Positions 1 to 12,842 of a stretch of 32,000 nt of DNA are shown piece by piece. How positions within the stretch are numbered: position 1 is the first letter of the stretch; each line of letters begins with the position of its first letter. Below the pieces are notes generated by a model. The model was not told the origin of the DNA. It worked only from the letters and a program-made list of their open reading frames with translations, and searched no databases. This DNA is from Candidatus Methylomirabilis oxygeniifera (GTDB lineage Bacteria > Methylomirabilota > Methylomirabilia > Methylomirabilales > Methylomirabilaceae): contig FP565575.1 of the NCBI GenBank assembly GCA_000091165.1, forward strand, positions 1,050,001-1,082,000. The letters are read 5' to 3'. Made by a program: the position numbers and the translations under genes.

Positions 1-207
1 GGCACGGATTGCATTGACCCGAATGTCCGCCTCCTTTTTCGCGAAGCGGAATGTCTCTCGCAGAACGCGGTCGAGCTCGGACAGGATGAAAGGGGAGATG
101 AACAGCTCGATTTCTCCTCTGCGGATGCGATACAGGATTTGATCCGGCTTGCTCCCCGGGAAAGCCAGGGCGGAGATCAAGACATTGGTGTCAAGGACAA
201 TCCGCAT
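1..207 (-). CDS. vapC: PIN-domain ribonuclease toxin (VapC-like), C-terminus cut by window edge
   Basis: Reverse-strand ATG at 205-207. Translation MRIVLDTNVLISALAFPGSKPDQILYRIRRGEIELFISPFILSELDRVLRETF... has the N-terminal (V/L)DTN acidic motif of PIN domains. It lies 12 nt downstream of an RHH antitoxin gene. Confidence 0.8.
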   Translation of the reverse strand, partial: MRIVLDTNVLISALAFPGSKPDQILYRIRRGEIELFISPFILSELDRVLRETFRFAKKEADIRVNAIRA

Positions 208-219
208 GGTGTGGTGGGC

Positions 220-456
220 TTATTTGCGGACCGCGTGCACGATTCGATCCACATCCTCCTCCGTTCTGATTCCGAGCGCCTGGGCGTGGAGGGCGGTCTT
301 GCGCTGAAGTTTCCGCCAGCGTTGGTCCTCAAGGTACAGGCGCAAGGCTTCCCGGAGGAGTTCGCTCTTCGTTCGATTTTCCTCCTTGGCTGTTCGTTCG
401 GCCTCTCTGCTGAGCTTAGGCGGAAGCGAAATAGTCCATGTCTTGGTGGTGCGCAT
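220..456 (-). CDS. vapB: Ribbon-helix-helix (CopG-type) antitoxin
   Basis: 78-aa ORF with AGGAGG about 7 nt upstream of the ATG. TISLPPKLSREAERTAKEENRTKSELLREALRLYL is a typical RHH DNA-binding segment. It sits directly upstream of the PIN toxin gene. Confidence 0.8.
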   Translation of the reverse strand: MRTTKTWTISLPPKLSREAERTAKEENRTKSELLREALRLYLEDQRWRKLQRKTALHAQALGIRTEEDVDRIVHAVRK

Positions 457-496: not shown

Positions 497-621
497 ATGA
501 TGTTATTACAGAGATGTCAAGGGGGTCAGTATAGTCTGATGCTCCATTCGAGAGTCTGAGTATGGCACGAGGGCTAGGGAGCGGTCGGATGGCTGGGGGG
601 CGCGGAGCCGAAGGCGATGGG

Positions 622-2079
622 CTACGCGGGACGGACGTGGCGGCGCAGGGCGAGGAGGCCGCCGCCGACCAGGAGCGCGACCATGGCAAGCTGCGCCCAC
701 TCCGACAGGGTGGGAATCGCCTGAGTCCCGACGGCAGTCAGCGTGACATCGTTGCTGCCCACGTACGAAATGTGGAATTGCGTGCTGCCGACCGTGAACG
801 TCGCGCCCTCGGGCAATCCGGCGAACGTTCCCGTCACGGCGTCGGTACTGTCATTGTTGATGATCGTGAACACTTGCCCTGCTGTCGGCGTGAAGCCGAG
901 GACCACGTTCAGCGTGGCGCCACCGAGGGTCACCGTCCCCGTCACGTTGACCTGGTCGTACTGCGTCCCGACCGTGGGGCCGTTGATCTCGATGGTCAGC
1001 GTGCTGCCGGAAGTCAGCGTCAGGTTGCCGGTGTTCATGATCCCGGTCGAAAGCCCGGGGCCCAGTGTGCCGCCGTTGTTCACGGTCACGGCATTGAACG
1101 TGCCCGTGCCGCCGAGCGTGCCGCCCGAGTTCACCGTCACCGGCGAGGCGATCGACCCGTTGACCGCGAGCGTCCCCGCGTTCACGGTCGTGGCGCCGGT
1201 GTAGGTGTTCGCGCCCGAGAGCGTCAGCGTGCCGGTGCCGGCCTTGGTCAGCGCCGCCGCGCCGCCGCTGTTCTGATACACGCCGGAGAAGGTGGTGCTG
1301 GTGTTGTCGCCGCCGACGGTCAGCGCGTTGCTGCCGTTCATAAATACGTTGCCGCCCCCGGCCAGCGAGCCGATGGTGCTGGCGGCCTGGAAGAGCGCGC
1401 TGCCGTTGACGGTGAGCGCGCTGCTGGTCGGGACGGCACCATTGACATCAAATCGGACGCGTGCGGTGCCACTAACGGTGGTCGCGCCGGTGTACGAGTT
1501 GACGGTGAGGAGCTGGAGGCCGTCGGTTGGCCCCGTGCTCGATAGCGTAAGAGGACCCGTTCCAGTGATGGCGCCTGTGAAATGCAAAGCGTCGGCATTG
1601 CCGCCTGAGGTAGCCAGCGAGAAGGTGGTCGAGCCGTTAAGTGTCACCCCAGGAACACTGTCAGCCGGGCTGGTGTTGGCGTTATTGAAGGTATCGGTGA
1701 TGGTGCCGCCGCTTTGGAGCACGATCGGGCCGCCGGCAATTGCCAGGATGCCGCCACCGCCGTTGCAGGAATTCATCGTGAGGGAATGCAGTTGAACTGT
1801 GGACGGCAGATCGTAATTCGTGGGACACGCGGCCCCGCCCGCCCCTTGGCTCATATCGATGACGACATCGTCGCCTGTCCCCGGCGCGCCCGCCGGAGTC
1901 CAGCAGGCGCTGGTTGACCAGTTCGAGCCCAAAGGACAGCCACCGACACTGCCATTCAGGTTTTTGGTGGCGGCGAAGGCTGGCGTGGGAGGCAGCAATA
2001 GCAGGATGAAAAGCGCCGGAAAAGCTGCAACGGGCCGGGCGAACGCAATGATTGCGAGAAACGCGTGACGACACATCAT
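622..2079 (-). CDS. Secreted repeat protein with autotransporter-associated beta-strand repeats and an IPTL-CTERM sorting signal
   Basis: GGAGAGGAGAA lies before ATGATG. N-terminal signal peptide ends ...PPTPAFA/ATK. Repeated G-x-G-T-L-T-L-S-G-A-N-T-Y-T-G-A-T-T-V-N-A-G-T-L type units are present. C-terminus is AIPTLSEWAQLAMVALLVGGGLLALRRHVRPA, i.e. an IPTL motif, a TM helix and a basic tail. Confidence 0.85.
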   Translation of the reverse strand: MMCRHAFLAIIAFARPVAAFPALFILLLLPPTPAFAATKNLNGSVGGCPLGSNWSTSACWTPAGAPGTGDDVVIDMSQGAGGAACPTNYDLPSTVQLHSLTMNSCNGGGGILAIAGGPIVLQSGGTITDTFNNANTSPADSVPGVTLNGSTTFSLATSGGNADALHFTGAITGTGPLTLSSTGPTDGLQLLTVNSYTGATTVSGTARVRFDVNGAVPTSSALTVNGSALFQAASTIGSLAGGGNVFMNGSNALTVGGDNTSTTFSGVYQNSGGAAALTKAGTGTLTLSGANTYTGATTVNAGTLAVNGSIASPVTVNSGGTLGGTGTFNAVTVNNGGTLGPGLSTGIMNTGNLTLTSGSTLTIEINGPTVGTQYDQVNVTGTVTLGGATLNVVLGFTPTAGQVFTIINNDSTDAVTGTFAGLPEGATFTVGSTQFHISYVGSNDVTLTAVGTQAIPTLSEWAQLAMVALLVGGGLLALRRHVRPA

Positions 2080-2147
2080 TTCTCCTCTCCCACCATAGCA
2101 AACTTCAGCGCAGCCGAGGGGTCACCACGATTCGGCCGCTTGATCGT

Positions 2148-3215
2148 TCAGGTCGCAGAGCCTATTAGAATATCTGGCTCAATCAGAACAAGCGCCTCTT
2201 CTGGCGCGTGCCCATGAAATCGCCCAAAATCAGCTGGACCAAGTATGTTGGCGACTTGTCTTACTATCAGCCCAGCATAAAAGTTAAAAGCGTAAGCGAC
2301 GCATCTTGCCTCAGATTCGCTCATTGATTTGGCAGGCAGCGATGCCGGGGTGAATTTCGCCCCTTTCCCGAGGAGCCTGTCCAAGGTCGCGCGAGCCGGG
2401 GCATGCACCTTCGTCCAAAATGCGATCAACTCTCTGAGTTTTGCCGAATCGATGCCTCGGCCATAATATTGAACTGACAGTTCTATCTCTTGGATGGTCC
2501 TCTTATGCATCACTTGCTGAATCTCGAAGATGTCGTCGGCAGTCCATTCCTCTCGTGCCCTGGAGTCGACCGGCTTGGCGTGGAGTTCTGCCAATGCTTG
2601 CAGATATTCGCGTGTTTCGGGATCCACCTCCGAAGACATGGCCATGCCAGCATTGCAGCTGGATCTTATGACGCTCCAGTCGATAACATCCCACACCTGC
2701 ACAGCGAGTCCTGCAAGGTACAGAGGGAGCCCAAACAGAGCAAGAATCCCTACTGGCACTAGTTCTCCATAAACTCCAAAGAGGAGGGTCATCGCCACGG
2801 CGCCTTTAGCATCCTTCGTTGTGAGTCCAGTCCCGTAAAGAATGCGGTTTGCCAGTTGATGACAGACGCCATTGATCGCATAGACGATTCCAGCCTGTGC
2901 TGGGATCCCCATAAACTTACCTACCTCCCTGCCGCCAATACAGCTCGCCTTGCCTGTGTCGCCCTGTACTTTGCCCAGCTCCCGGGCATTGCTTGGAGGA
3001 GTGTATACTCCATTTTTCCACCGGGCATGGTCACAGTAGTACGAGTCCGGTGGGGTGTCGGCACTTGTAAGGGAGGCCGTCCCAAATCGGCATCCATCAC
3101 AATAGCCTTCTGCTCCTGATTTTCCGTCTCCAGTGACCCAAGTGTGCTCGCCAATGGCCCGGTCGTATATGACATCACCGAGTGGAATAGCCCAAGCATG
3201 CATAGTATCTCCCAT
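2148..3215 (-). CDS. Orphan membrane protein: Cys/His-rich N-terminal domain, central hydrophobic hairpin, helical C-terminal domain
   Basis: The long ORF is trimmed to the internal ATG at 3213-3215, which is preceded by AAGGAGG plus a 6-nt spacer (MGDTMHAWAIPLG...). The region is visibly lower in GC than its flanks. Central segment is AVAMTLLFGVYGELVPVGILALFGLPLYLAGLAVQVW. I recognise no family. Confidence 0.6.
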   Translation of the reverse strand: MGDTMHAWAIPLGDVIYDRAIGEHTWVTGDGKSGAEGYCDGCRFGTASLTSADTPPDSYYCDHARWKNGVYTPPSNARELGKVQGDTGKASCIGGREVGKFMGIPAQAGIVYAINGVCHQLANRILYGTGLTTKDAKGAVAMTLLFGVYGELVPVGILALFGLPLYLAGLAVQVWDVIDWSVIRSSCNAGMAMSSEVDPETREYLQALAELHAKPVDSRAREEWTADDIFEIQQVMHKRTIQEIELSVQYYGRGIDSAKLRELIAFWTKVHAPARATLDRLLGKGAKFTPASLPAKSMSESEARCVAYAFNFYAGLIVRQVANILGPADFGRFHGHAPEEALVLIEPDILIGSAT

Positions 3216-3344
3216 ATCGTGCCTCCTTTTGTGTTTTGTGAGACTCCTCTCCTCTACAAAGTTTAGCCTTCTGACTCCACAGGTAGACCTGGCCACGCTG
3301 CGTAAGATCACCCCAGGAGGGATAGGCATTTTAAATCATCGGGG

Positions 3345-3677
3345 TCAGGTCTTGAATCTTGAATCATGCGATACCTTCTGCTTGATCACTTTGCTCACCG
3401 ACGAGTGATGAAGCCCCAGATGCGTCGCGATCGCCGCCTGCGAGTAGCCGTGCCGCAGCGCTGCCTTCACGATCGCCCGGTTCCGCTCGCCTCGATTGAA
3501 CGACCCTTTAGCTCTCAGGTTAATCGGGTCGCGACAATAGAAGAAGAACGTAATGCTGGGATCGCGCATGGCGATGCGCTGCGCACCGGCCGGGGTACAG
3601 TTCGGGACCCGCTTCTTGAGGTTGGACCAGTTGGCACCCTGATACTGGGCGACGTTGGGGGCTTTTGTGAAGGCCAT
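3345..3677 (-). pseudogene. Chimeric ORF: unknown 60-aa N-terminus fused to the C-terminal DnaA-like HTH typical of IS200/RAYT-type Y1 transposases (relic)
   Basis: GGAGG lies before ATG (MAFTKAPNV...). The C-terminal ERNRAIVKAALRHGYSQAAIATHLGLHHSSVSKVIKQ matches the HTH tail I remember from REP-associated/IS200-like transposase proteins. No Y1 catalytic domain is present. Confidence 0.45.
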
Positions 3678-3710
3678 CGAATCCTCCTTCAAACACCGCT
3701 GATCGTCGTA

Positions 3711-3830
3711 CTATCGCGTCGCCCGTGACGTGAGCCACGCCGCATTGAAGCCATTGGTGTCGACGGTGCCGCCGCCCGCGTTGAGCGTCACGCCGGCCGG
3801 CCTCGCCAACGCGCCGGCAATTCGTCGCGG
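3711..3830 (-). pseudogene. Short relic of an autotransporter-type beta-strand repeat gene
   Basis: The reverse frame ending at TAG (3711-3713) reads ...IAGALARPAGVTLNAGGGTVDTNGFNAAWLTSRATR*. LNAGGGT-x-DTNGFN is characteristic of passenger-domain repeats. There is no start codon or signal peptide. Confidence 0.3.
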
Positions 3831-3954
3831 CTGCGCCCCTTGGGCACGAGACAGTCGTCCGCACCCTATGCGGTGGGGGGGGGCGTGTCAAGGCAAAAGT
3901 GAGCAGCGCCAATGCGGCCTGCCTGACAGCGGCCGGTCACGCGCATCAGCACGG

Positions 3955-4005
3955 CATCTGAGCCGAACGATCACTGCATAGCGAGTGCTGCGAACGGCTC
4001 AGATG
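3955..4005. repeat. 11-bp perfect inverted repeat (CATCTGAGCCG ... CGGCTCAGATG) enclosing 29 nt
   Basis: Read directly: arms at 3955-3965 and 3995-4005. It is non-coding and lies between the transposase-HTH relic and the TA cassettes. It could be a REP/MITE-like hairpin. Confidence 0.6.
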
Positions 4006-4025
4006 GTATCAGACTGGGGGCGGGG

Positions 4026-4062
4026 TTACTGGCCGGCGCGGGCACGATGCCTCAGCGATGTT
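4026..4062 (-). pseudogene. Degenerate third copy of the UPF0182 gene 3' end
   Basis: TTACTGGCCGGCGCGGGCACG compares with CTACTTGCCGGCGCGGGCGCG at 4974 and 5992. The reverse frame reads ...ETSLRHRARAGQ*, against ...ESALKELR(A/T)RAGK* in the other copies. Confidence 0.4.
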
Positions 4063-4274
4063 TCACTACGGGAGGCGCCGGGAGAGGCCATGCGACGGGG
4101 TGCGACATGGCCTGACCGGATCAGGGGACCCAGCGTGAGGCAGGATCAGACGCGACCCCCTTTCATCCCGCTTTTTCCTTGACATCCTCGCGGGGAAGAC
4201 CACAATAACCTTCAACGTTGCCACGTTATAGATGTTGCTTCTGCGGGCGTTCATCTCATGGTGGCCAAAGAACT

Positions 4275-4589
4275 GTGACCATTCAGGACCTCATCGAAGC
4301 GATTCGCCGGCATCGCATACGTATCACAGACCACGCTGATGAGGAGGCGCAGGCCGACCGCTTGTCTTTTGAAGAGACGTTCTACAGCGTATTCCAAGGC
4401 GAGATCATTGAAGAGTATCCTGAAGACAAGCCATACCCGAGCTGTCTGGTCCATGGCGAAAGTTTCAAGGGCGAACCGATTCACAGCGTTTGGGCGTATA
4501 ATAGCACCAACGGGTAGGCGGTCTTGATTACGGTATATCGACCTGCCCCGGAACGATGGATCAACTGGCGTGTCAGGAGAAAGACATGA
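4275..4589 (+). pseudogene. DUF4258-family toxin interrupted by an in-frame TAG (4515-4517)
   Basis: From GTG 4275: MTIQDLIEAIRRHRIRITDHADEEAQ...EYPEDKPYPSCLVHGESFKGEPIHSVWAYNSTNG, then TAG. The same frame continues AVLITVYRPAPERWINWRVRRKT and ends in a TGA that overlaps the downstream ATG (ATGA at 4586-4589). That tail is the conserved DUF4258 C-terminus. The start codon is uncertain (TTG 4218 is also possible). Confidence 0.65.
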
Positions 4590-4828
4590 TGCCGTTCAAC
4601 AAATGCCCGATCTGCGGTGGCGAATTAGTGGAAAAAGACGTGGAAAAGCTGCTCAAAGGTGGCGTACATACTGCGGTATTGCAGGTACGCGCCGAGGTGT
4701 GTTTACGGTGTGGCGAGCGACTGTACTCCGAGGAAACGGTCAGGCGCTTTGAGCAGGTGCGGCGCAAACTCGAGCGACACGACGTCGAAGGGTTTCAACC
4801 ATTGGGTCGATCGTTCCATGTTGCGTAG
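4586..4828 (+). CDS. YgiT-type zinc-finger protein (MqsA-family antitoxin partner of DUF4258)
   Basis: AGGAGA lies before ATGATG. MMPFNKCPICGGELVEKDVEKLLKGGVHTAVLQVRAEVCLRCGERLYSEETV contains two CxxC pairs in the YgiT finger arrangement. Its start overlaps the ancestral toxin stop. Confidence 0.8.
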   Translation: MMPFNKCPICGGELVEKDVEKLLKGGVHTAVLQVRAEVCLRCGERLYSEETVRRFEQVRRKLERHDVEGFQPLGRSFHVA

Positions 4829-4973
4829 GCCGGAGCGAAGTTGTCGAAGCGGTCTGGTCATCGTCATGGCTCTCCGTCCGTCTCACACGCTCTGTTAGCG
4901 CCGTCCTGGCGCCTTCCCCCGCGAAAGCTTGTTCCGCGCGACGAGGTATCCCGTGGCCGGCCGGTCTGCGTGG

Positions 4974-5090
4974 CTACTTGCCGGCGCGGGCGCGCAACTC
5001 CTTCAGCGCCGACTCCAGCCGTTTGACCTCTTCGCTGTAGCCGGCGAAATTGCCCTGTCGAAGCAGCTCCTGCGCCTGCGTGCGGAACAT
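4974..5090 (-). pseudogene. Displaced second copy of the UPF0182 3' end (38 codons plus stop, still an open frame)
   Basis: By eye about 85 percent identical over about 105 nt to 5992-6100, with an identical first 17 nt including the stop. It encodes MFRTQAQELLRQGNFAGYSEEVKRLESALKELRARAGK*. No Shine-Dalgarno sequence is present. Confidence 0.75.
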
Positions 5091-5246
5091 TCACTTGCAA
5101 ACTGAGGGTGGGCACGTGTAGGAGGATCGCGTGCTGCTCCGTACTCCTGGTAGGGCAGTTGGGCGGGCAAAGCGACGCATAAATCCGCTTCGCTGTGACT
5201 TCGCTGCAGTATGCAAGGCAGTACCGCCGCTGAGTGAACTTCGAGA

Positions 5247-5275
5247 TTGCCAACCCTGGTACGGTGTGGTATTCA
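5247..5275 (+). promoter_or_regulatory. Candidate sigma70 promoter of the antitoxin/PIN operon
   Basis: TTGCCA, a 17-nt spacer, then TATTCA, located about 27 nt upstream of the ATG at 5302. Confidence 0.35.
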
Positions 5276-5301
5276 CAGTAGAGAAAAAAGGGAGGTGAGC
5301 G

Positions 5302-5526
5302 ATGCCGAGGCCAAGCCCGCTTGGGAAAATTGAAAAAGAGATCGAAAGGCTTTCTCCGAAGGATCAGCTCAAGCTGGTGGAGAAGCTCGCTCATCAGTTG
5401 ACAAAGACCGGAATTGCGGCGAGGAAAGAGCTGGACTGGAAGCGTCTGTACGGTCTTGGCAAAGGACTCTGGAAAGGTGAGGACGCTCAGGCCTACGTGA
5501 ATCGCCTGAGAGAGGATCGGATGTGA
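5302..5526 (+). CDS. Type II antitoxin (small helical protein upstream of PIN toxin)
   Basis: GGGAGGTGAGCG lies before the ATG. The 74-aa product is MPRPSPLGKIEKEIERLSPKDQLKLVEKLAHQL...LYGLGKGLWKGEDAQAYVNRLREDRM. Its stop overlaps the GTG start of the PIN gene (ATGTGA). Confidence 0.7.
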   Translation: MPRPSPLGKIEKEIERLSPKDQLKLVEKLAHQLTKTGIAARKELDWKRLYGLGKGLWKGEDAQAYVNRLREDRM

Positions 5527-5927
5527 CGCTTTCGGACGAGCTTACCGGGATCGACAGCATCTTCATTGACACAGCCCCGATCATCTACTACATAGAAGCC
5601 CACCCGGAATTTGGCCACCTGGCTAAAGAGGTCGTCACCGCTTTTCAATCCGGACATCTCACCGCCTACTCCTCAGTCATGACCCTCGCTGAGGTCCTAC
5701 CTCGACCGATCGAGCGCGGAGACGAGAAGCTTGCCAGGACATTCGCCGACTTCCTCAAGCATGGGAAGCGGCTGACCATGGTCGAGATCTCCGAAGAAAT
5801 AGCTGAGTCTGCCGGCAAGTTGAGAGGCCGTTACCCTGCCCTCAGGACTGTTGATGCCGTGCAGATTGCGGCCGCTCTGGAAACCGGTTCTCACGCCTTC
5901 CTGGCAAATGATATGCGATTGAAATAG
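5523..5927 (+). CDS. vapC: PIN-domain toxin (VapC-like)
   Basis: 134 aa. Acidic PIN residues appear in FIDTAP, TLAEV, VDAVQIAAA and LANDMRL. It is translationally coupled to the upstream antitoxin. Confidence 0.85.
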   Translation: MTLSDELTGIDSIFIDTAPIIYYIEAHPEFGHLAKEVVTAFQSGHLTAYSSVMTLAEVLPRPIERGDEKLARTFADFLKHGKRLTMVEISEEIAESAGKLRGRYPALRTVDAVQIAAALETGSHAFLANDMRLK

Positions 5928-5991
5928 ATCACCGATATAAAGGTTCTCGTCCTGAAAGATTATCTCTGAACTCCTCTGTCTCGCTGTGCCC

Positions 5992-8709
5992 CTACTTGCC
6001 GGCGCGGGTGCGAAGCTCCTTCAGCGCAGACTCCAGGCGTTTGACTTCATCGCCGTAGCCGGCGAAGTTGCCCTGCCGAAGTAGGTCCTGTGCCCGCGTA
6101 TAATGGTCGTAGGCGCGAGCGGCCAGCGCCTTGAGTGAACTGTCAACCTCTGCGGGTGCCCCCACGGGGGCCCCCGGAATCATGGCCGTGACAGGGCCCC
6201 TCGCCGCGCCGCCAAAGACTCTGGCCAGAGCGCCGTCGAGTGTTTCTTCCATGGCGATCGAGTTCCCATGCGCGACGATGATCCGCTTCAACTCCGGCAG
6301 CGACCCCTTCTCGGCCGCCAGGTAGAGTGGCTGGACATAGAGCAGTGACCGCTCGATCGGGATGGCCAGCATGCTGCCTCGGATCACGGTAGAGCCGCGT
6401 TGGCTCCAGAGCGAGAGCTGCTGCGAGATAAAGGAGTCCTGGTCGATACGGGCGTTGATCTGCCGCGGACCGTAGACCATCTTCGCCTTGGGGAAGTTGA
6501 AGGCGGTCAGCTTCCCGTAGTTCGGCGGGTCGCTGCGGGCTGCGAGCCAGGCGATCATATTGTCTTTCTTGTTCGGTGTGAACGGTAAGAGGAGGATAAA
6601 CTCTTCCTTCGTCTCGTCCGGAAGCCGCATGATGGTATGGTACGGCTCCATCTCGGCAGGAATGCTCCAGAGATCTTCTTTGTTGTAAAACACCTGGGGG
6701 TCCTGCATATGGTAGGTGCTGTAGAGTCTGGCCTGGATGTTGAACATCCCTTGAGGATAGCGAAGATGGCTCTTCAGGTCGTCCGGCATCGCCTCGAGCG
6801 GTTGAAACAGTCCAGGGAATGCCCGGTCGTAGGCCTTGATCACGGGATCTGTCTGATCGGCGATGTAGAAGCTGAGGCTCCCGTTGTAGGCGTCTACCAC
6901 CACCTTGACCGAGTTGCGAATATAGTTGCCCACGCCGCGGATCGGTTCGGAATACGGGTACATATCCGAGATGGTGTAGGCGTCGATGATCCAAAACAGA
7001 CGGCCGTCCTTGGCGATAACCATATACGCGTCCCGATCGAAGCTTAAAAAGGGCGCCGCCTTCTGGACTCGCTCGGAGATCTGTCGGTGATACATGATCC
7101 TGCTGTCCAACGTCAGGTCTTGTGAGAGGAGGATCTTGAGCGTCCCGAAGCGGGTGGCGAACAGGAGTTTTCGTCCGAGGGTCGTGAGCGGCACACCCCC
7201 GTCGCCGGTATACGTGCTGTAGACGTTTTTATCGCCTGAGGGGTAATCCAACTCCTGGGCTTGCGTCTTGACGATGACGTAGTCGTTAGCGACCTCGCTG
7301 TAGTAGATCTCCGGACGCGTGACCTTGATCGGCGTGGTGGAGACCGGCGGGATGTCCTTGATCAGGAACTCCGGTAGCCCCTCCGGAGTAACCCGGTTGA
7401 CGGGTCCGAGGACGACCCCGTAGCCGTGGGTAAAGATCAGGTGTTCATTGATCCAACTTCGACCCGGCAGATGTTGCTGCGACATCTCTCTGGCCGAGAT
7501 CATGACCTGCCGGTACTCGCCGTCGATCTGGTACCGGTCGTTGTCCACGTCCATAAACTTATAGTAGGTCCGGATCTCCTGGAGCTGGCCGTACGTCGTG
7601 AGCAACGGACGATGATCCCAGAGACGGATATTTTTGATCGTCAGATCGTTGCGTCGCAGGTCTTCGCGGGTCAGGGTTTCCTCGGCCGGAAACTCTCGCT
7701 CATCGATCCGGTCGAGTCCATAGGCCTGCCGGGTGAAATGAATGTTGTGGGTGATGTAGGGACTTTCGGCCACGATCTCATTCGGAACGACGCGGAAGCG
7801 CTGGATAAAACTCGGATAGAGACCCAGACCGATGAGGCTGGCAAGAACCAACATGCCGATGCCGACCAGGACCAATCGCCAGCCGCGCTGGAAGATTTGG
7901 GCCAGGCAGAGGAGGGCGACAAAAATGGCCAGGATCGTCAGAAAATTGAGGGCCGGGAGGCTGGCGTTGATGTCGCTATAGCTGGCGCCGAAGACCATTC
8001 CGCTGGGGGAGTAGAGGAGCTGGTAGGTGTCGAGTCGGTAGCCAACGGCCTTAATCACGAACAGCAATGCGCCGAGCACAAGCAGGTGTGTCCTCGCCAG
8101 GCGCGCAATAATCGGCCCGCGGTTCGTGATCTGTATGCCCCTGAAGAGAACGTAGGTCATAGCGGTCACGAAGAGGATCAGGATGACTGAGCTGATCAGC
8201 CAACCATACAGGAAGTTGAGGAAGGGCAGCTTGAAGACATAGAACCCGACATCCTGCCGAAAGATCGGGTCCTCAATATCAAAAGGTAATGCGTTGGCAA
8301 AGCGGATGTAACGTTCCCATGCGGCGGCCGCCCGGAATGCCGAGAAGACCCCGAGTCCGAGAACGCCGGGGATCAAGAGGCGGCGGAAGTACGGTTCGAT
8401 GATAAAACGGCTGGGAAGTCCGAACCTGTCCTCGACCTCGAGGAGGACATCGGTGGCGGTCAATCGACTGGCCATGTACAGGTTCACGTACAGCAGGACC
8501 GCGAAGGTCAGGCCGAACGCGACAGCCAGCGTCAGTTGCGTCCTGAGCATCGTGACGAAGACGTTGGTCAGTCTCACCTCCTGAAACCAAAGCCAGTCTG
8601 AGTAGAGGGGGACCGTCTGGCTTCCAAGCACAAGGACGACCAGCAGGATCAGGACGTAGGCGATCTGCCTGCCCTTCAGTTCACCAGCGCTTCCATTGTA
8701 TTGCGCCAT
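5992..8709 (-). CDS. UPF0182 family membrane protein (COG1615)
   Basis: 905 aa. It has about 7 N-terminal TM helices and a large extracytoplasmic domain with ...MYHRQISERVQKAAPFLSFDRDAYMVIAKDGRLFWIIDAYTISDMYPYSEP..., which I recognise as UPF0182. GGGAG lies before the ATG. Confidence 0.9.
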   Translation of the reverse strand: MAQYNGSAGELKGRQIAYVLILLVVLVLGSQTVPLYSDWLWFQEVRLTNVFVTMLRTQLTLAVAFGLTFAVLLYVNLYMASRLTATDVLLEVEDRFGLPSRFIIEPYFRRLLIPGVLGLGVFSAFRAAAAWERYIRFANALPFDIEDPIFRQDVGFYVFKLPFLNFLYGWLISSVILILFVTAMTYVLFRGIQITNRGPIIARLARTHLLVLGALLFVIKAVGYRLDTYQLLYSPSGMVFGASYSDINASLPALNFLTILAIFVALLCLAQIFQRGWRLVLVGIGMLVLASLIGLGLYPSFIQRFRVVPNEIVAESPYITHNIHFTRQAYGLDRIDEREFPAEETLTREDLRRNDLTIKNIRLWDHRPLLTTYGQLQEIRTYYKFMDVDNDRYQIDGEYRQVMISAREMSQQHLPGRSWINEHLIFTHGYGVVLGPVNRVTPEGLPEFLIKDIPPVSTTPIKVTRPEIYYSEVANDYVIVKTQAQELDYPSGDKNVYSTYTGDGGVPLTTLGRKLLFATRFGTLKILLSQDLTLDSRIMYHRQISERVQKAAPFLSFDRDAYMVIAKDGRLFWIIDAYTISDMYPYSEPIRGVGNYIRNSVKVVVDAYNGSLSFYIADQTDPVIKAYDRAFPGLFQPLEAMPDDLKSHLRYPQGMFNIQARLYSTYHMQDPQVFYNKEDLWSIPAEMEPYHTIMRLPDETKEEFILLLPFTPNKKDNMIAWLAARSDPPNYGKLTAFNFPKAKMVYGPRQINARIDQDSFISQQLSLWSQRGSTVIRGSMLAIPIERSLLYVQPLYLAAEKGSLPELKRIIVAHGNSIAMEETLDGALARVFGGAARGPVTAMIPGAPVGAPAEVDSSLKALAARAYDHYTRAQDLLRQGNFAGYGDEVKRLESALKELRTRAGK

Positions 8710-8740
8710 CGTTGCTCCCGTATTGCGCTCGGAAAGACAT

Positions 8741-9973
8741 CTAGATGAGTTGGAGTGCCTGTCCCGTCTCGGCCAGAGCTGTCAGTGCGGCATCAAGATC
8801 TGCCGTGTCGTGCGAGGCTGTCACAGTGAGACGGATCCGTTCAGTCCCGCGCGGAACGGCAGGGTAGCGGATCCCCTGAGCAAAGACGCCGCGGTTCAGG
8901 AGTTCCTGACAGAAGCGCATCGTGCGTTCGGGCTCACCCAGGATCAGAGGGATGATCTGAGTTCCGTTCTCGTTCACCTCAAATCCGATCTCCTGCAGTC
9001 CCGCCCTTATATACCGGGTGTTGTCCCACAGCCGTTGTCGCCGCTCAGGCTCTTGCTCTACGATGGTCAGCGCATCGAGTAGGGTTGCCGGCACTGCAGG
9101 CGGCAACGCGCAGGTAAAGATAAAGGGCCTTGCCCGATTGATGAGGTGCTCGATGACGGTGCGGCTTCCGACGACGTAGCCGCCGAAGGCGCCCAGCGCT
9201 TTGGCGAGGCTTCCGGTTTCGATGTCGATTCGGCCCAGCACGCCCGTTGCCTCGACGGTTCCGCGCCCGGTCTCACCCAGTACGCCGGTGCCGTGGGAGT
9301 CGTCCACCATCGTCAGGCAGCCGTAGCGTTCCGCCAGTTCGACGATCTCCCTCAAGGGCGCCACGTCTCCATCCATGCTGTAGAGGCCATCGACCACGAT
9401 AAGCCGTCGCCCGGTGGAAGTCTCTTTTCTCAAGAGATCCTCCAGAACGGCGACGTCGTTGTGCGGAAAGACCCTGACCTGGGCGCGTGACAGCCGACAG
9501 CCGTCGACGATGCTGGCATGGTTCAGCGCATCGCTGAACACCGCATCCTGTGAGTCCATCAGGGCGGAGATCACGCCCAGGTTGGCCTGATACCCGGTGC
9601 TGAACAGAAGGGCAGCCTCGACCTGTTTGAAGCGGGCGAGTCGCTCCTCTAATTGAGGATAGAGATCGTAGTTACCCGAGATCAGACGGGCCGAGGCGGC
9701 GGCGCAGCCGTACCGCATGGTGGCCTGACAGGCGGCCTCTTTCAGTTGTGGGTGGCAGGCTAGGCCGAGGTAGTCGCTTCCGGCGAGGTGGATCACCTCT
9801 CTGCCGTCTACATAAATTCGTGGGCCTTGTGGACCGTCGACCTGTCTGAGCCAGCGGTACTGGCCCTCGATCTTCAGACCGTCCAACTCGCGCTGAAGCG
9901 ACTGAGCCATATCTTGGCGCAGACGTGGATCATCACAGGTTGGCAGTACCTTTGTGTTCTCGGCGGAGAGCAT
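8741..9973 (-). CDS. bioF: 8-amino-7-oxononanoate synthase-like PLP-dependent acyltransferase
   Basis: The ORF is trimmed to MLSAENTKV. Motifs include ASARLISGNYDLYPQLEERLARFK, STGYQANLGVISAL, NHASIVDGCRLS, DDSHGTGVLG and the PLP lysine in TGSLAKALGAFGGYV. It ends 32 nt upstream of the UPF0182 start. BioF versus Kbl or another family member is not fully resolved. Confidence 0.75.
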   Translation of the reverse strand: MLSAENTKVLPTCDDPRLRQDMAQSLQRELDGLKIEGQYRWLRQVDGPQGPRIYVDGREVIHLAGSDYLGLACHPQLKEAACQATMRYGCAAASARLISGNYDLYPQLEERLARFKQVEAALLFSTGYQANLGVISALMDSQDAVFSDALNHASIVDGCRLSRAQVRVFPHNDVAVLEDLLRKETSTGRRLIVVDGLYSMDGDVAPLREIVELAERYGCLTMVDDSHGTGVLGETGRGTVEATGVLGRIDIETGSLAKALGAFGGYVVGSRTVIEHLINRARPFIFTCALPPAVPATLLDALTIVEQEPERRQRLWDNTRYIRAGLQEIGFEVNENGTQIIPLILGEPERTMRFCQELLNRGVFAQGIRYPAVPRGTERIRLTVTASHDTADLDAALTALAETGQALQLI

Positions 9974-10267
9974 TGTGTGGGCATTATAGAGGAAGTCATG
10001 ACTGGTGGGCAACCGGAATCGGACGTCGCCCGATCTCTTCGTGAGGCGCGCGACCGCTGGCCCTCGGACCCATACTCTGCACACAACCAGGAAAGGGGCC
10101 CGCGTAGACCAGCGTCATCGCCCGCAGGCTCAGCCGTTGGGAAGTCGCAGCCGAGGTTAACAAGCTGAACGGTCCTGGCGCGCCAAATTGACACACCGTT
10201 CGGGTTCGAAGTAGATCAGCTTGGTAGCTAGCCCCAGGAATGCTGGTAACTGAAATCAGCGGCGCGA

Positions 10268-11971
10268 TCATGATGTCGAGTTGTCTGGCTTGAATGCAGC
10301 TCGTCGAATCTGGATCAATGCCTCGGCTTTCGCAGCCGAGAGCCCAAAATGTTCCAGTGACCAGCGGAGAAATTCCATGCCAGCTTCGAACTCTGGCATT
10401 ACGACCTCGGACGCGCCGGCCTTCCGCAGGCGCTCAAGCTCGATGGGGTTGTGCCCCCTTGCGATAATCTCGAGGGAAGGACGAATCTGAAGGGCCTCCC
10501 TGATCGTCTGCTCTGCAGCCGCGACATCATAATGGGTGACGACCAGCAACTTCGCTCGCTCCACGCCGGCTGCCTTGAGGATATGGCGATTACTGGCGTC
10601 TCCGAAGAGACACGGCTCGCGCTGGCGCCGAAGCTCTTCGACACGAATCGGGTTCAGTTCAATCGCGACATACGGGATTCCGCAAGCGCGGAGTTGTGTT
10701 ACGATCTCACCTCCAACTCGACCGCAGCCGCAAACTACGAGGTGATTGGCATGCCGCGCGGCCTCCACCTGTGGGCCCTCAGACAGGGCCGGTTCCTCGA
10801 CGGCACGGCCCATGCGCCGAAGCAACAGGGGGGCGCTATGGCGAAGGAGGGGTGGGTTCATGACGATGGAAATTAGCGCGGCGCCAAGCACTACTCCGTA
10901 TAGGTCTTCGCTGATGAAACTTCGATCTACTCCAAGCTTGGCCAATACGAATGAGAGTTCGCCTACCTGGGCGAGGAATAAGCCTGTCATAATGGCTGTG
11001 GACCATGTGTAGCCGAAGGCACGGGTGATCATTGCGGTAAGCGCGGGCTTGAGGAGCATGATCATGAGGACGACGGCCAGGAGAGTCCAGGGGTACTGCC
11101 AGAGGATGGCTGGGTTGGTAAGCATTCCAATCGAGACGAAGAAGAGGCTGGCAAAGAGGTCTCGGCTTGGCACCAGTTCAGCCAGTACCTGGTGGCTATA
11201 GTGCGAACGGCTCACGACGAGGCCGGCCAAGTAGGCTCCAAGCGCGGGTGACAGCCCAAGGGCAGCCAAGCCAACGGTGGTGCCGATAACCACGAGAACA
11301 ACCGTCAGTAAGAAGAGTTCCCTTGAGCGAAGGCGCGCGACGGAGGTGAACAGAGCGGGCAGGAAGAGGCTCGAGACGAGGTATGCGCCGATCAACAGCA
11401 ACAGTGCGTTGCCGAGCGCGAGCAACAGCGGGCGCACGACGTCATCTCCGGGAGCGGCCCAAGCAGGGAGTAGGACTATCATGGCGACCAGGCTCATGTC
11501 CTGGAGGAGGGCAATCCCTATCGTGATCTCTCCGTGAGGCGCATCCATCTCGGCGCGGTCTAAGAGAAGTTTGAGGATGACCATCGTGCTGGAAAGGGAC
11601 ACAATCCCGCCGAAAAACAGCTGCTGGAGCAGTGGGAAACCCATGAGTTTGCCGACTGCCATTCCCGTTGCTGCAGTGAGGACCACTTGGAGCAGCCCAC
11701 CTCCGATGGCGATCCCGCGGACGCGGCGCAGCCGGGAGACCGGGAACTCCACGCCGAGTTCAAACATCAGGAGGATGAGCCCGATCTCCGCCAAGGTCGA
11801 AATGTTGTGGATATCGCTGACGGGTCCTGGCGTATACGGGCCGATGAGGATTCCGCCAAGCAGATAGCCGACGAGGGGAGGTTGGCCGAGTCGCTGTGCC
11901 GCTACCCCTCCAATAAACGCGGCACCGATCGCCAGGACGAGATCGCCGAAGAAGGGCAAGTCGGGCATCAT
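10268..11971 (-). CDS. Kef-type (CPA2) monovalent cation:proton antiporter with C-terminal RCK/TrkA-N domain
   Basis: 567 aa. It has about 12 TM helices followed by HLVVCGCGRVGGEIVTQL, a Rossmann GxGxxG motif. Confidence 0.9.
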   Translation of the reverse strand: MMPDLPFFGDLVLAIGAAFIGGVAAQRLGQPPLVGYLLGGILIGPYTPGPVSDIHNISTLAEIGLILLMFELGVEFPVSRLRRVRGIAIGGGLLQVVLTAATGMAVGKLMGFPLLQQLFFGGIVSLSSTMVILKLLLDRAEMDAPHGEITIGIALLQDMSLVAMIVLLPAWAAPGDDVVRPLLLALGNALLLLIGAYLVSSLFLPALFTSVARLRSRELFLLTVVLVVIGTTVGLAALGLSPALGAYLAGLVVSRSHYSHQVLAELVPSRDLFASLFFVSIGMLTNPAILWQYPWTLLAVVLMIMLLKPALTAMITRAFGYTWSTAIMTGLFLAQVGELSFVLAKLGVDRSFISEDLYGVVLGAALISIVMNPPLLRHSAPLLLRRMGRAVEEPALSEGPQVEAARHANHLVVCGCGRVGGEIVTQLRACGIPYVAIELNPIRVEELRRQREPCLFGDASNRHILKAAGVERAKLLVVTHYDVAAAEQTIREALQIRPSLEIIARGHNPIELERLRKAGASEVVMPEFEAGMEFLRWSLEHFGLSAAKAEALIQIRRAAFKPDNSTS

Positions 11972-12003
11972 GTGTTCACCCCGAACCCACTGAGTGCAGC
12001 GGA

Positions 12004-12093
12004 ACGTAAGTACGGTGACGCTCGCTTCTGCTCCCTCTCCAGCAGCGGGGGAGAGGGGATTGAAAAGTTACGTCGAGACAATACGTCACCGTA
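12004..12093 (-). promoter_or_regulatory. Structured 5' leader of the kef gene (nested and alternative stems)
   Basis: The 10-bp inverted repeat TACGGTGACG (12011-12020) / CGTCACCGTA (12084-12093) encloses an 8-bp hairpin CCCTCTCC (12033-12040) / GGAGAGGG (12050-12057). A competing pair is ACGTAA (12004-12009) / TTACGT (12068-12073). The whole structure ends about 35 nt upstream of the start codon. Confidence 0.3.
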
Positions 12094-12416
12094 ATTCTGG
12101 CCAGAAGGAAAAAGTGCGCAGCCGCATCCGGTGATCACGTTGTTGCGCTCGCTCTCTCGGGAGGCTGAATGCGTCCCGAGAAAGTGGGTCAGACCTTTCC
12201 GAAAGTTCTTTAACGTACTGCGCGACATCTGGTCAACCTAAATCCGGCGCCTAAAGGCGTTAGCCGCTGGCTCTCAGGCGTATAGCATGACCCTAAAATA
12301 GAGACATTGCCCCCTCACAAATATGCAAACCCGTCAATGGTGGCGGGTTGCGGTGAGGGATCACTCCTCACCAATCAGGTGAAACCACACTACCAACAGA
12401 GGGGCTAGGTGCGGTG

Positions 12417-12842
12417 AAGGGTCTGGCTCGGTTGATCAGGTATTCGATGACGGTGCGGTTTCCGACGACATAGGCCCCAAAGCCGGCAGGTGACTTGGCG
12501 AGACTTCCGGTCTCGATGTCGATCCGACCCAGCACGCCCGTCGCTCTGGTGGTCCCGCGCCCGGTCTCGCCCAGCAGGCCAGGCCAAGATAGTCGCTTCC
12601 GGCGAGGTGGATCACCTCCCTGCCGTCTACAGAAATCCGTGAGCCTTGTGGACCATCGACCTGTCTGAGCCATCGGTGCAGGCCTTCGGCCTTCAGGCTG
12701 TCCAGTTCCCGCTGAAGCGACTGAACCATGCCATCGCGTACGTGTAGAACGTCACGGGTGTCCGGCACCTGCATGTTCTCAGCAGAGATCATTATCCGGT
12801 ATTATAAAGGAAGTGCGACAGGTGAGCAACCGGAACCGGCGG
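12417..12842 (-). pseudogene. Internally deleted, 3'-truncated second copy of the bioF-like gene, including its upstream region
   Basis: About 12579-12842 aligns with about 9760-10025 (N-terminus MISAENMQV...RWLRQVDGPQGSRISVDGREVIHLAGSDYLGLA plus about 50 nt upstream). About 12417-12580 aligns with about 9122-9286 (...GETGRGTTRATGVLGRIDIETGSLAK...INRARPF). About 475 nt are missing between the two blocks, and the reading frame is broken. Confidence 0.8.

Follow-up and report, generated by a model that had tools for sequence, protein, structure and literature searches.

Arrays in which 3′ ends of a conserved gene are displaced and retained are known from Rhs loci, where a conserved gene body is followed by displaced, laterally acquired 3′ ends that carry a stub of homology (Jackson et al. 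2009, PMC2935791). Here, we describe a comparable arrangement at the end of a UPF0182 gene of Candidatus Methylomirabilis oxygeniifera (GCA_000091165.1, contig FP565575.1, positions 1,050,001 to 1,082,000). This stretch of 32,000 nucleotides is called the window throughout, and coordinates refer to it unless another sequence is named. Behind the gene, copies of its 3′ end alternate with small predicted toxin-antitoxin (TA) operons. We lean towards reading the locus as a serial gene-end displacement array formed by recombination through the UPF0182 tail, an interpretation that we consider moderately probable. Displacement arrays as such are known; the variant, with TA operons as cargo and the conserved end of a housekeeping-type gene as the docking sequence, is new.

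The locus shares with Rhs and contact-dependent inhibition loci the combination of a conserved gene and laterally acquired 3′ ends with a homology stub. In Rhs, however, what is displaced are variable toxin tips together with their immunity genes, and the system serves to diversify the end, whereas the UPF0182 array repeats the conserved, non-toxic tail of a housekeeping-type membrane protein and carries free-standing TA operons in either orientation. The displaced ends do not encode toxin domains of the Rhs type: the tails all specify the same conserved 35 residues, and the toxins are separate PIN, DUF4258 and DUF6036 genes. Arrays of type VI secretion effector-immunity modules (2017, PMC5361080) are similar in that stepwise insertion beside a conserved gene pushes older modules downstream. 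They also have no integrase, one-sided homology was proposed as their anchor, and their authors likewise drew a comparison with integrons (PMC5361080). Type VI arrays lose the old effector and keep orphan immunity genes, whereas the UPF0182 array keeps complete two-gene TA operons, with a copy of the gene end at each boundary.

Copies of a gene 3′ end also separate successive insertions at one hotspot in the ssrA islands of Dehalococcoides (PMC3146451); unlike here, dedicated recombinases are carried or clearly needed and RNA genes are the targets. In tandem accretion and in cis-mobilizable elements (CIMEs), direct repeats of the target gene end bound elements that lack an integrase, and entry takes place at an attachment (att) site that includes the gene end (PMC5704250). 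CIMEs differ in being decayed integrative and conjugative elements or integrative and mobilizable elements that need the integrase of a related element and a fixed att core (PMC5704250). At the UPF0182 locus, direct repeats of the gene 3′ end similarly bound each element and the gene is intact, but the units are ~1 kb long, contain no trace of decayed mobility genes and appear to have variable exchange points, and several unrelated gene ends are involved. The tycheposons of Prochlorococcus likewise have gene-3′-end repeats between insertions, but use dedicated recombinases and RNA-gene targets. Integron arrays, including attC clusters without an integrase, are composed of small one-operon cassettes, often TA operons, each followed by a repeat of ~100 nt, with the newest cassette proximal. 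The UPF0182 array is unlike them in that its repeats are homologous to the adjacent coding end, and in that its cargo has its own promoter region and is of mixed orientation.

Serial copies of the UPF0182 gene end

The window was compared with 160 related loci (80 species-representative genomes and 80 metagenome contigs), and all loci are labelled here with L-numbers; L092 is the same genome as the window and continues 10 kb past window position 1. Features of the window are listed in Table 1.

Table 1. Features of the UPF0182 array and the adjoining gap in the window.
Feature	Coordinates	Strand	Remarks
UPF0182 gene, 905 aa	5992..8709	-	Pfam PF03699, E 6e-304, full-length; gene whose 3′ end recurs
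Working tail, last ~111 nt of UPF0182 including stop	5992..6102	-	block that recurs
Exchange interval for gain or loss of the extra cassette of L176	5992..6011	-	...CGCACC, CCGCGCCGG, CAAGTAG
PIN (VapC-like) toxin gene, cassette 1	5523..5927	+	PF01850, E 2.9e-12; nonsense codon 5925-5927
Antitoxin candidate, 74 aa, cassette 1	5302..5526	+	no Pfam family; 4-nt overlap with PIN start
Linker and presumed promoter region of cassette 1	5083..5301	.	between copy A and antitoxin start
Copy A, displaced UPF0182 tail, open 38-codon frame	4974..5082	-	87% identity to working tail, ~91% to L002 and L003
MqsA/YgiT-type zinc-ribbon antitoxin, cassette 2	4556..4828	+	PF15731; 80 aa from 4586
DUF4258 toxin gene, cassette 2	4275..4517	+	PF14076, E 1.7e-17, profile positions 1-62 of 71 only; nonsense codon 4515-4517
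Copy C, probable 31-nt remnant of UPF0182 end (last codons, TAA stop, CC flank)	4024..4054	-	nhmmer E 0.037
Sequence distal to copy C, common to window and L176	3851..4023	.	genomes differ beyond 3851
Window-specific segment	718..3850	-	HTH_38 110-aa ORF (open reading frame), 355-393-aa unknown protein, PATR/IPTL-CTERM protein
RHH antitoxin (220-456) and start of PIN_3 toxin gene	1..456	-	third TA operon of the gap; native EpsH-like gene just past window position 1

The gene end recurs at copy A, where positions 4974-5081 form an ungapped alignment of 108 nt with 5992-6099 (87% identity; blastn E = 1e-24; tblastn with the tail peptide, E = 4e-15). A DNA profile made solely from the gene ends of 11 relatives also finds this copy, at E = 1.7e-33. 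The 17-mer CTACTTGCCGGCGCGGG is common to the working tail and copy A, and the similarity begins at CACGC (position 5082) and ends 3-6 nt past the stop codon. Copy C ranks first among the remaining profile matches in the window, and is marginal when taken alone (E = 0.037 over both strands; a blastn match of 16/17 nt has E = 0.77). It lies on the same strand as the other copies, holds the orthologous position in the sister genome L176, and matches the end of the L001 gene with its post-stop flank over 34 nt at 85% identity, which suggests that it is probably a remnant of a UPF0182 end.

An earlier note, made from the window alone, had described both copies and proposed a formal alignment. In that alignment, copy A stands far above background and is confirmed as a repeat of the UPF0182 3′ end. 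Copy C, marginal by itself, survives as a probable remnant on the strength of the L001 match and its conservation in L176, but its alignable part is only ~31 nt and does not span the range given earlier. The term "nested", which had been applied to the copies, was the wrong word: they are serial direct repeats, with start-to-start spacings of 948 and 1018 nt. The weak scores of copy C on its own would fit chance similarity in GC-rich DNA, and an assembly artefact might also be considered. However, copy A scores between 1e-24 and 1e-33, orthologous copies are found in L176 and L188, and the window DNA and proteins are identical to contig WBTX01000002.1 of GCA_009026205.1, with the same arrangement in independent NCBI, ENA and Logan assemblies. 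Chance or artefact is barely conceivable as an explanation, and for copy A and the array as a whole it is already refuted.

Relatives with and without the array

The holder of the closest PIN homologue (96% identity), L176 (GCA_040960765.1), is ~96% identical to the window across the region, including the UPF0182 gene, whose protein is 95% identical to that of L001. The array of L176 contains the copy C remnant, the DUF4258/MqsA operon, an orthologue of copy A (T3) and the PIN operon, all as in the window. An extra unit of 995 nt is found next to the gene, with a 59-aa gene and a 163-aa DUF6036/AbiEii-like nucleotidyltransferase gene, and is bounded by a full tail copy (T2). L176 is collinear with window positions 3851-6093 and 5993-9000, and the extra unit stands between these segments. 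The extra cassette recurs in L188, a third lineage with 87.6% identity to L176, where it accompanies the gene end and joins a displaced tail at the same junction as in L176.

The ancestral order in the 160 loci is UPF0182, followed after 11-90 nt by an EpsH-like exosortase gene, a SEC-C-motif gene and a fatty-acid oxidation operon. Some relatives are without both small genes, and their oxidation operon directly follows UPF0182 (gap of 130 nt in L001, ~55 nt in L022). In the window genome, the distance from UPF0182 to the EpsH-like gene is 6.4 kb. Other relatives carry different cargo in the gap, identified by eye as a MazF/RHH pair with a restriction-enzyme fragment (L002), a TIR-like gene with a ParE-type pair (L004), and a GIY-YIG gene (L032); in L112, the gap (1037-10191) holds 9 kb with two RND-type efflux pump genes and no tail repeat. 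Searches with the tail peptide and the DNA profile gave no second tail copy in the ~160 other loci, and none of the other relatives with different cargo has the cassettes of the window at the UPF0182 site. The gap is therefore a general insertion hotspot, and the tail repeats are special to one clade: among the loci searched, the window lineage, L176 and L188 alone have the UPF0182 array.

The variation that the earlier note had suggested looking for is therefore present, in that L176 has one cassette and one tail more than the window, L188 shares this cassette, and both empty sites and different cargo occur among relatives. Together, L176, L188 and the empty sites support its proposal of repeated cassette addition at the UPF0182 3′ end. 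Its suggestion that the units are decayed tandem islands is unlikely, since all three lineages have compact units of ~0.95-1.02 kb, one of which contains a full-length cargo gene that runs as far as the tail junction.

Displaced tails were also sought outside the compared loci. The copy A peptide, searched against 1.84 billion protein representatives, gave 6 matches, none of which is a clear displaced-tail ORF: four are C-terminal fragments of the full gene, one is a weak match in an 832-aa protein, and one is an uninformative 30-aa ORF at a contig edge. Two degenerate tail patterns had no match in viral contigs, and there is thus no sign of a phage-borne attP.

Two kinds of repeat-related sequence were seen in the same gap. 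Several relatives with an empty site have a palindromic repeat element (GTCATTGCGAGG ... GAAGCAATCTC) behind UPF0182 (L001 12725-12830; just past the stop in L003, L005 and L007), of which the window genome keeps the right half alone, at the far edge of the gap (L092 12487-12525). The gap of one relative contains an apparent transposase, identified by eye as a tyrosine transposase associated with repetitive extragenic palindromes (REP; L099 11704-12240).

Origin and drift of the displaced tails

Each tail was compared with the consensus of the working tails of 37 relatives. T2 of L176 shows 13 differences from this consensus, 11 of which are seen in other working tails and are all synonymous, and 2 of which are novel. 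In copy A, 6 of the 7 differences are seen in other working tails, again all synonymous, leaving 1 novel; the corresponding values for its orthologue T3 are 10 seen elsewhere (8 synonymous) and 3 novel, among 13. The novel changes (1-3 per copy) are mostly non-synonymous. For scale, T1 and T2 of L176 differ at 17/102 sites, compared with 9.7% at the four-fold sites of the UPF0182 genes of the window and L176. As the differences are mostly synonymous states of other lineages, the copies are former working ends, from lineages as distant as different species. This agrees with the earlier note, which had proposed that copy A diverged as a working gene end: its synonymous states are found in the working tails of other lineages.

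After displacement, the tails drift. Copy A and its orthologue in L176 differ at 12/102 sites, about the neutral level set by the four-fold sites of the gene, which indicates neutral drift since displacement. Its open frame is a scar and not a gene. Some assemblies nevertheless list displaced ends of this kind as genes, for example the 38-codon ORF at 4974-5090, but they are scars.

A model for gene-end displacement

In the displacement array towards which we lean, each unit of ~1 kb consists of one TA operon and one copy of the UPF0182 3′ end of ~105-111 nt. Recombination in a donor genome between the two tail copies that flank a cassette would loop out a circle with one tail and one cassette. 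A single crossover of this circle with the resident UPF0182 tail in another cell would then produce a tail-cassette-tail arrangement, restoring the UPF0182 frame, placing the cassette directly 3′ of the gene, and leaving a second tail on its far side. Repeated entry would stack cassettes, with older tails pushed downstream to decay, while recombination between neighbouring tails, the reverse reaction, would delete a cassette. General homologous recombination between diverged (homeologous) tails would be sufficient, and no enzyme dedicated to the array would be required. Homologous recombination with circular intermediates, by which existing 3′ ends are displaced into arrays, has been proposed for Rhs loci (PMC2935791).

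Exchange points and block boundaries

The tails of the window and L176 record one gain or loss event. The window tail is the same as the L176 working tail up to CGCACCCGCGCCGG, and from there on the same as T2 and its flank (GGCAAGTAG followed by GGGCACAG, with CAAGTAG before GGGCACAG). The working tail of L176 is window-like up to CCCGCGCCGG and then ends with GGTAAGTAA and CCCCGCC, while T2 is divergent up to the same point, CCCGCGCCGG, and then has the window-like end GGCAAGTAG and GGGCACAG. Such reciprocal hybrid tails are the pattern that would be expected from one crossover within the last ~20 nt between a resident tail and the tail of a circular unit; the reverse reaction, deletion of a unit, would predict the same hybrid pattern equally. 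The working end in this event is resident-type for ~90 nt, and the divergent tail is in the displaced position. The incoming unit thus does not simply supply a new working end, and the proposal in the earlier note that each element brings a replacement 3′ end does not describe the mapped event, in which the working end stays resident-type until its last ~20 nt.

Other boundaries lie elsewhere. The working and displaced tails of L188 match at 47/49 positions in their 5′ part and then diverge, giving a boundary near -55 that could be due to gene conversion, and the 3′ end of T3 in L176 looks converted to the L176 working type. Along with the boundary in the last 20 nt, these cases suggest that exchange positions vary. 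The left boundary of the displaced block is near-identical in two units with unrelated cargo, at CACGC in copy A and 0-7 nt off in T2. In the consensus, this left boundary and the 3′ exchange core form a 9-nt inverted repeat (CGCGGGCGC/GCGCCCGCG), a length reached in 9/2000 shuffles; in the actual copies, the inverted repeat is only 5-6 nt long, which 10-45% of shuffles reach.

An alternative explanation of the array is that a tyrosine or serine recombinase, with its gene elsewhere in the genome, acts site-specifically on integrase-less cassettes comparable to CIMEs or integron cassettes, with the UPF0182 tail as att site and with exchange in the CCCGCGCCGG core before the stop. We consider this possible but doubtful. 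The direct repeats of the target gene 3′ end, and integration that restores the gene, would be those of islands at gene ends (PMC5704250), and the sole mapped gain or loss event does exchange within a core of 10-20 nt; however, the second exchange or conversion boundary near -55 does not fit this core. The near-identical block boundaries in two units with different cargo and the 9-nt terminal inverted repeat of the consensus would be natural for such a site, against which stands the degraded state of the repeat in the actual copies. The newest cassette adjoins the gene, as at an integron attI, but cargo orientation is mixed, and the signature recurs at other genes with unrelated repeats of ~46-175 nt (see below). 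The larger ORFs of the 32-kb window and of the ~10 kb past position 1 (~42 kb together) gave no match to an integrase, resolvase or transposase domain, the rest of the genome not having been searched.

A relationship to integrons in the strict sense was rejected. The attC core motifs R″ (RYYYAAC) and R′ (GTTRRRY) are absent from either strand of the four tail copies with their 15-nt flanks, and the predicted folding of the eight single strands is not significant relative to shuffled sequences (z = -1.8 to +0.7), a short terminal stem being present but not in all copies. Both results also argue against the trans-acting recombinase.

The same signature at other genes

A scan for direct repeats over 1.9 Mb of fetched loci revealed the same signature elsewhere. 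In L185 (and also L186), the end of a membrane-protein gene, ~100 nt including the TGA stop (77-177), is found again at 817-916. The interval belongs to the DUF4258/MqsA cassette family, with homology to the window cassette from the first base past the stop, and its toxin gene has an internal deletion. In L107 (3530-7012), three copies of a SEC-C gene end separate ParE/Phd and DUF5615/DUF433 operons, and between two of these copies, flank included, identity is 100% over 108 nt as far as the contig end. A Gp49/HTH_37 operon just past UPF0182 in L009 (12656-13902) is flanked by intergenic repeats of 50-70 nt (82-84% identical), and is absent from the closest relatives, L131 and L132.

A PIN_3/Phd operon is likewise located just past UPF0182 in L133 (10185-12631); over both loci, L009 and L133, the intergenic repeats that flank the TA operons are 48-70 nt long and 82-85% identical.

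The window itself contains a further example, in which the repeat comes from a gene 5′ end. A 2.5-kb insertion (10023-12573), which carries a Na+/H+ exchanger gene (10268-11971), lies between two direct copies of a 266-nt sequence; these are 79.5% identical and correspond to the 5′ end of an aminotransferase gene (region compared: 10023-12839 vs 9123-10022). The copy at 12574-12839 is native-like and the working 5′ end of the aminotransferase gene is divergent. An extra 164-nt mid-gene fragment (12417-12580) is also present, and the insertion is absent from L176, L001, L002, L003 and L008.

Since the same signature is found at the SEC-C gene of L107 and the gene end of L185, the site is not an att site specific to UPF0182. 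Several unrelated sequences are involved, with repeats of ~46-266 nt, which homology explains better than one sequence-specific recombinase.

These loci also bear on a transposition-like insertion that duplicates ~100 nt of its target, a very long target-site duplication whose copies would at first be identical. Cassettes of one family do occur at more than one gene, in each case between repeats of the sequence found locally, and the fully identical 108-nt repeat around the L107 cassette is what such a duplication would leave. At UPF0182, however, the tail differences are shared with other lineages as mostly synonymous states, so that the tails did not arise by copying the resident target during insertion; under a duplication, moreover, the neutral copy would need to have changed less than the constrained one. 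In addition, repeat lengths vary widely, and no transposase was found in the window and the adjoining ~10 kb. For the UPF0182 array, this explanation is very improbable and, on the tail comparisons, close to refuted.

Another alternative is homology-facilitated illegitimate recombination of linear DNA from a related lineage, in which UPF0182 would provide the anchor and the far end of the fragment, with a tail and a TA cassette, would join inside the resident tail, displacing it; a precedent is given by the type VI secretion effector-immunity arrays (PMC5361080). This route, which we regard as unlikely, would accommodate the tails from other lineages, the different lengths of the displaced pieces (31, 109, 46 and ~175 nt), and the divergent and native copies of the gene 5′ end at the Na+/H+ exchanger insertion. 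It would also fit the raised number of window-specific substitutions over the last ~300 nt of UPF0182 (18 and 8 per 151-nt bin vs ~3.5 elsewhere), as left by an imported tract reaching upstream of the repeat. However, all pairwise comparisons find the stretch from -270 to -130 hypervariable, which makes the raised divergence weak evidence and not decisive for a recombination breakpoint. A linear route further predicts an imported working tail and a displaced resident one, whereas the extra cassette of L176 shows the opposite, unless the window later lost that cassette. Nor does it account for the near-identical left boundary of two units.

Assessment of the displacement model

The homology-based displacement array accounts for the hybrid tails and their foreign alleles. 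It also explains why exchange points appear to vary, why single units are gained or lost, and why no recombinase gene was found nearby. For this model we infer a dependence on RecA and a route of DNA from cell to cell, as well as some origin of the first tail-cassette-tail unit.

Several points weigh against it. The circular intermediate belongs to the inferred part of the model, no circular form having been seen, and the model leaves the origin of the first tail-cassette-tail unit unexplained. Recombination of the RecA type is inefficient between segments of ~105 nt with no more than 83-87% identity. With three lineages carrying the UPF0182 array, independent events are few. The left boundary shared by two units hints at a defined site and would not obviously result from random events, the 9-nt inverted repeat of the consensus points the same way, and the search for recombinase genes covered ~42 kb of the genome.

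A dedicated, trans-acting recombination system of NC10 bacteria, moving TA cassettes of ~1 kb into gene 3′ ends and duplicating ~50-175 nt of the target, appears quite unlikely to us.

Toxin-antitoxin cargo and its decay

The earlier note had assigned one TA operon to each interval, an assignment upheld by Pfam matches to PIN (PF01850), DUF4258 and the MqsA/YgiT zinc ribbon. All three predicted pairs, namely PIN with its 74-aa partner, DUF4258 with MqsA/YgiT, and the DUF6036/AbiEii-like gene of L176 with its 59-aa partner, have the organization of type II TA systems, with two small adjacent or overlapping genes, one of a known toxin family and one of a known or candidate antitoxin family.

In the window, both toxin genes are cut short by nonsense codons not seen in L176 or in the respective families, and the antitoxin genes are intact. 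In the PIN gene, a CAG to TAG change removes 14 of 148 residues (the L176 copy is full length, and homologues have 148 aa), and in the DUF4258 gene, TGG in L176 corresponds to TAG, with the loss of 24 codons. The TA modules thus appear, from these codons, to be decaying in the window lineage, and present-day addiction does not explain their retention here. The earlier view that addictive modules persist is weakened to that extent, as the modules are still in place but both toxin genes are interrupted.

The TA operons as such are widespread, and homologues of the cargo are found in other surroundings. In L180 and L181, gene pairs with 81-84% nucleotide identity to the PIN operon stand in unrelated contexts where no tails are present, and the homology of L180 to the PIN module starts at 5218; among the fetched loci, the segment 5083-5217 matches only the copies in the same genome and L176. 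MqsA homologues of 90-96% identity are located at other loci of other Methylomirabilis contigs, and in some of these contigs (L183, L184, L187) the DUF4258/MqsA pair, at 89% identity, immediately follows an amidohydrolase gene, with no gene-end repeat at this position. No common backbone was seen, the linkers of the three units being dissimilar to one another.

The sole match of a linker outside the array is a palindromic segment of 43 nt between copy C and the DUF4258 gene (4071-4112), 88% identical to L180 924-966. The L180 segment is upstream of the PIN operon in an unrelated contig, and may represent another small repeat family.

Sequence beyond the array

At the counterpart of the window-specific segment, L176 has 1.4 kb of other genes. 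The segment is within the same variable gap, and no UPF0182 tails bound it. The sequence between this segment and copy C contains a promoter-like TTGACA-N17-TAGGGT directed away from UPF0182. Scans of 3300-6500 with Rfam and with consensus promoters and terminators gave only one promoter-like site of relevance (4179-4206), and a tRNA scan of the window gave no tRNA gene.

An exact 11-nt copy of the tail core (CGCGCCGGCAA) lies in inverted orientation at 3800-3829, ~30 nt inside the window-specific segment and near the point where the window and L176 diverge; taken alone, it is at chance level. At the other end of the segment, the exosortase-substrate proteins of the window and L176 differ (PATR vs glycine-rich), with only the coding end of the IPTL-CTERM sorting signal in common (window 560-720, L176 4848-4926), and the two genomes are collinear again from this coding end. 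A candidate IPTL-CTERM gene-end remnant after the RHH-PIN_3 operon (L092 10682-10704) was rejected, its 23 nt at 83% identity being at chance level.

Implications

The movement of chromosomal TA operons is a long-standing puzzle, as the hallmarks of mobile elements are usually absent. The UPF0182 locus keeps the footprints of successive insertions, in the form of boundary repeats, alleles of donor lineages, reciprocal hybrid tails, and sister genomes that are one unit apart, and the mechanism is thus directly testable. If the units move by ordinary recombination, any gene end could dock once one unit exists. The displacement model of Rhs would then extend from polymorphic toxins to housekeeping genes with defence or addiction cargo, and would explain small TA and defence islets beside core genes. 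A dedicated NC10 system, if real, would be a functional counterpart of the integron without IntI or attC, with coding gene ends as its docking sites.

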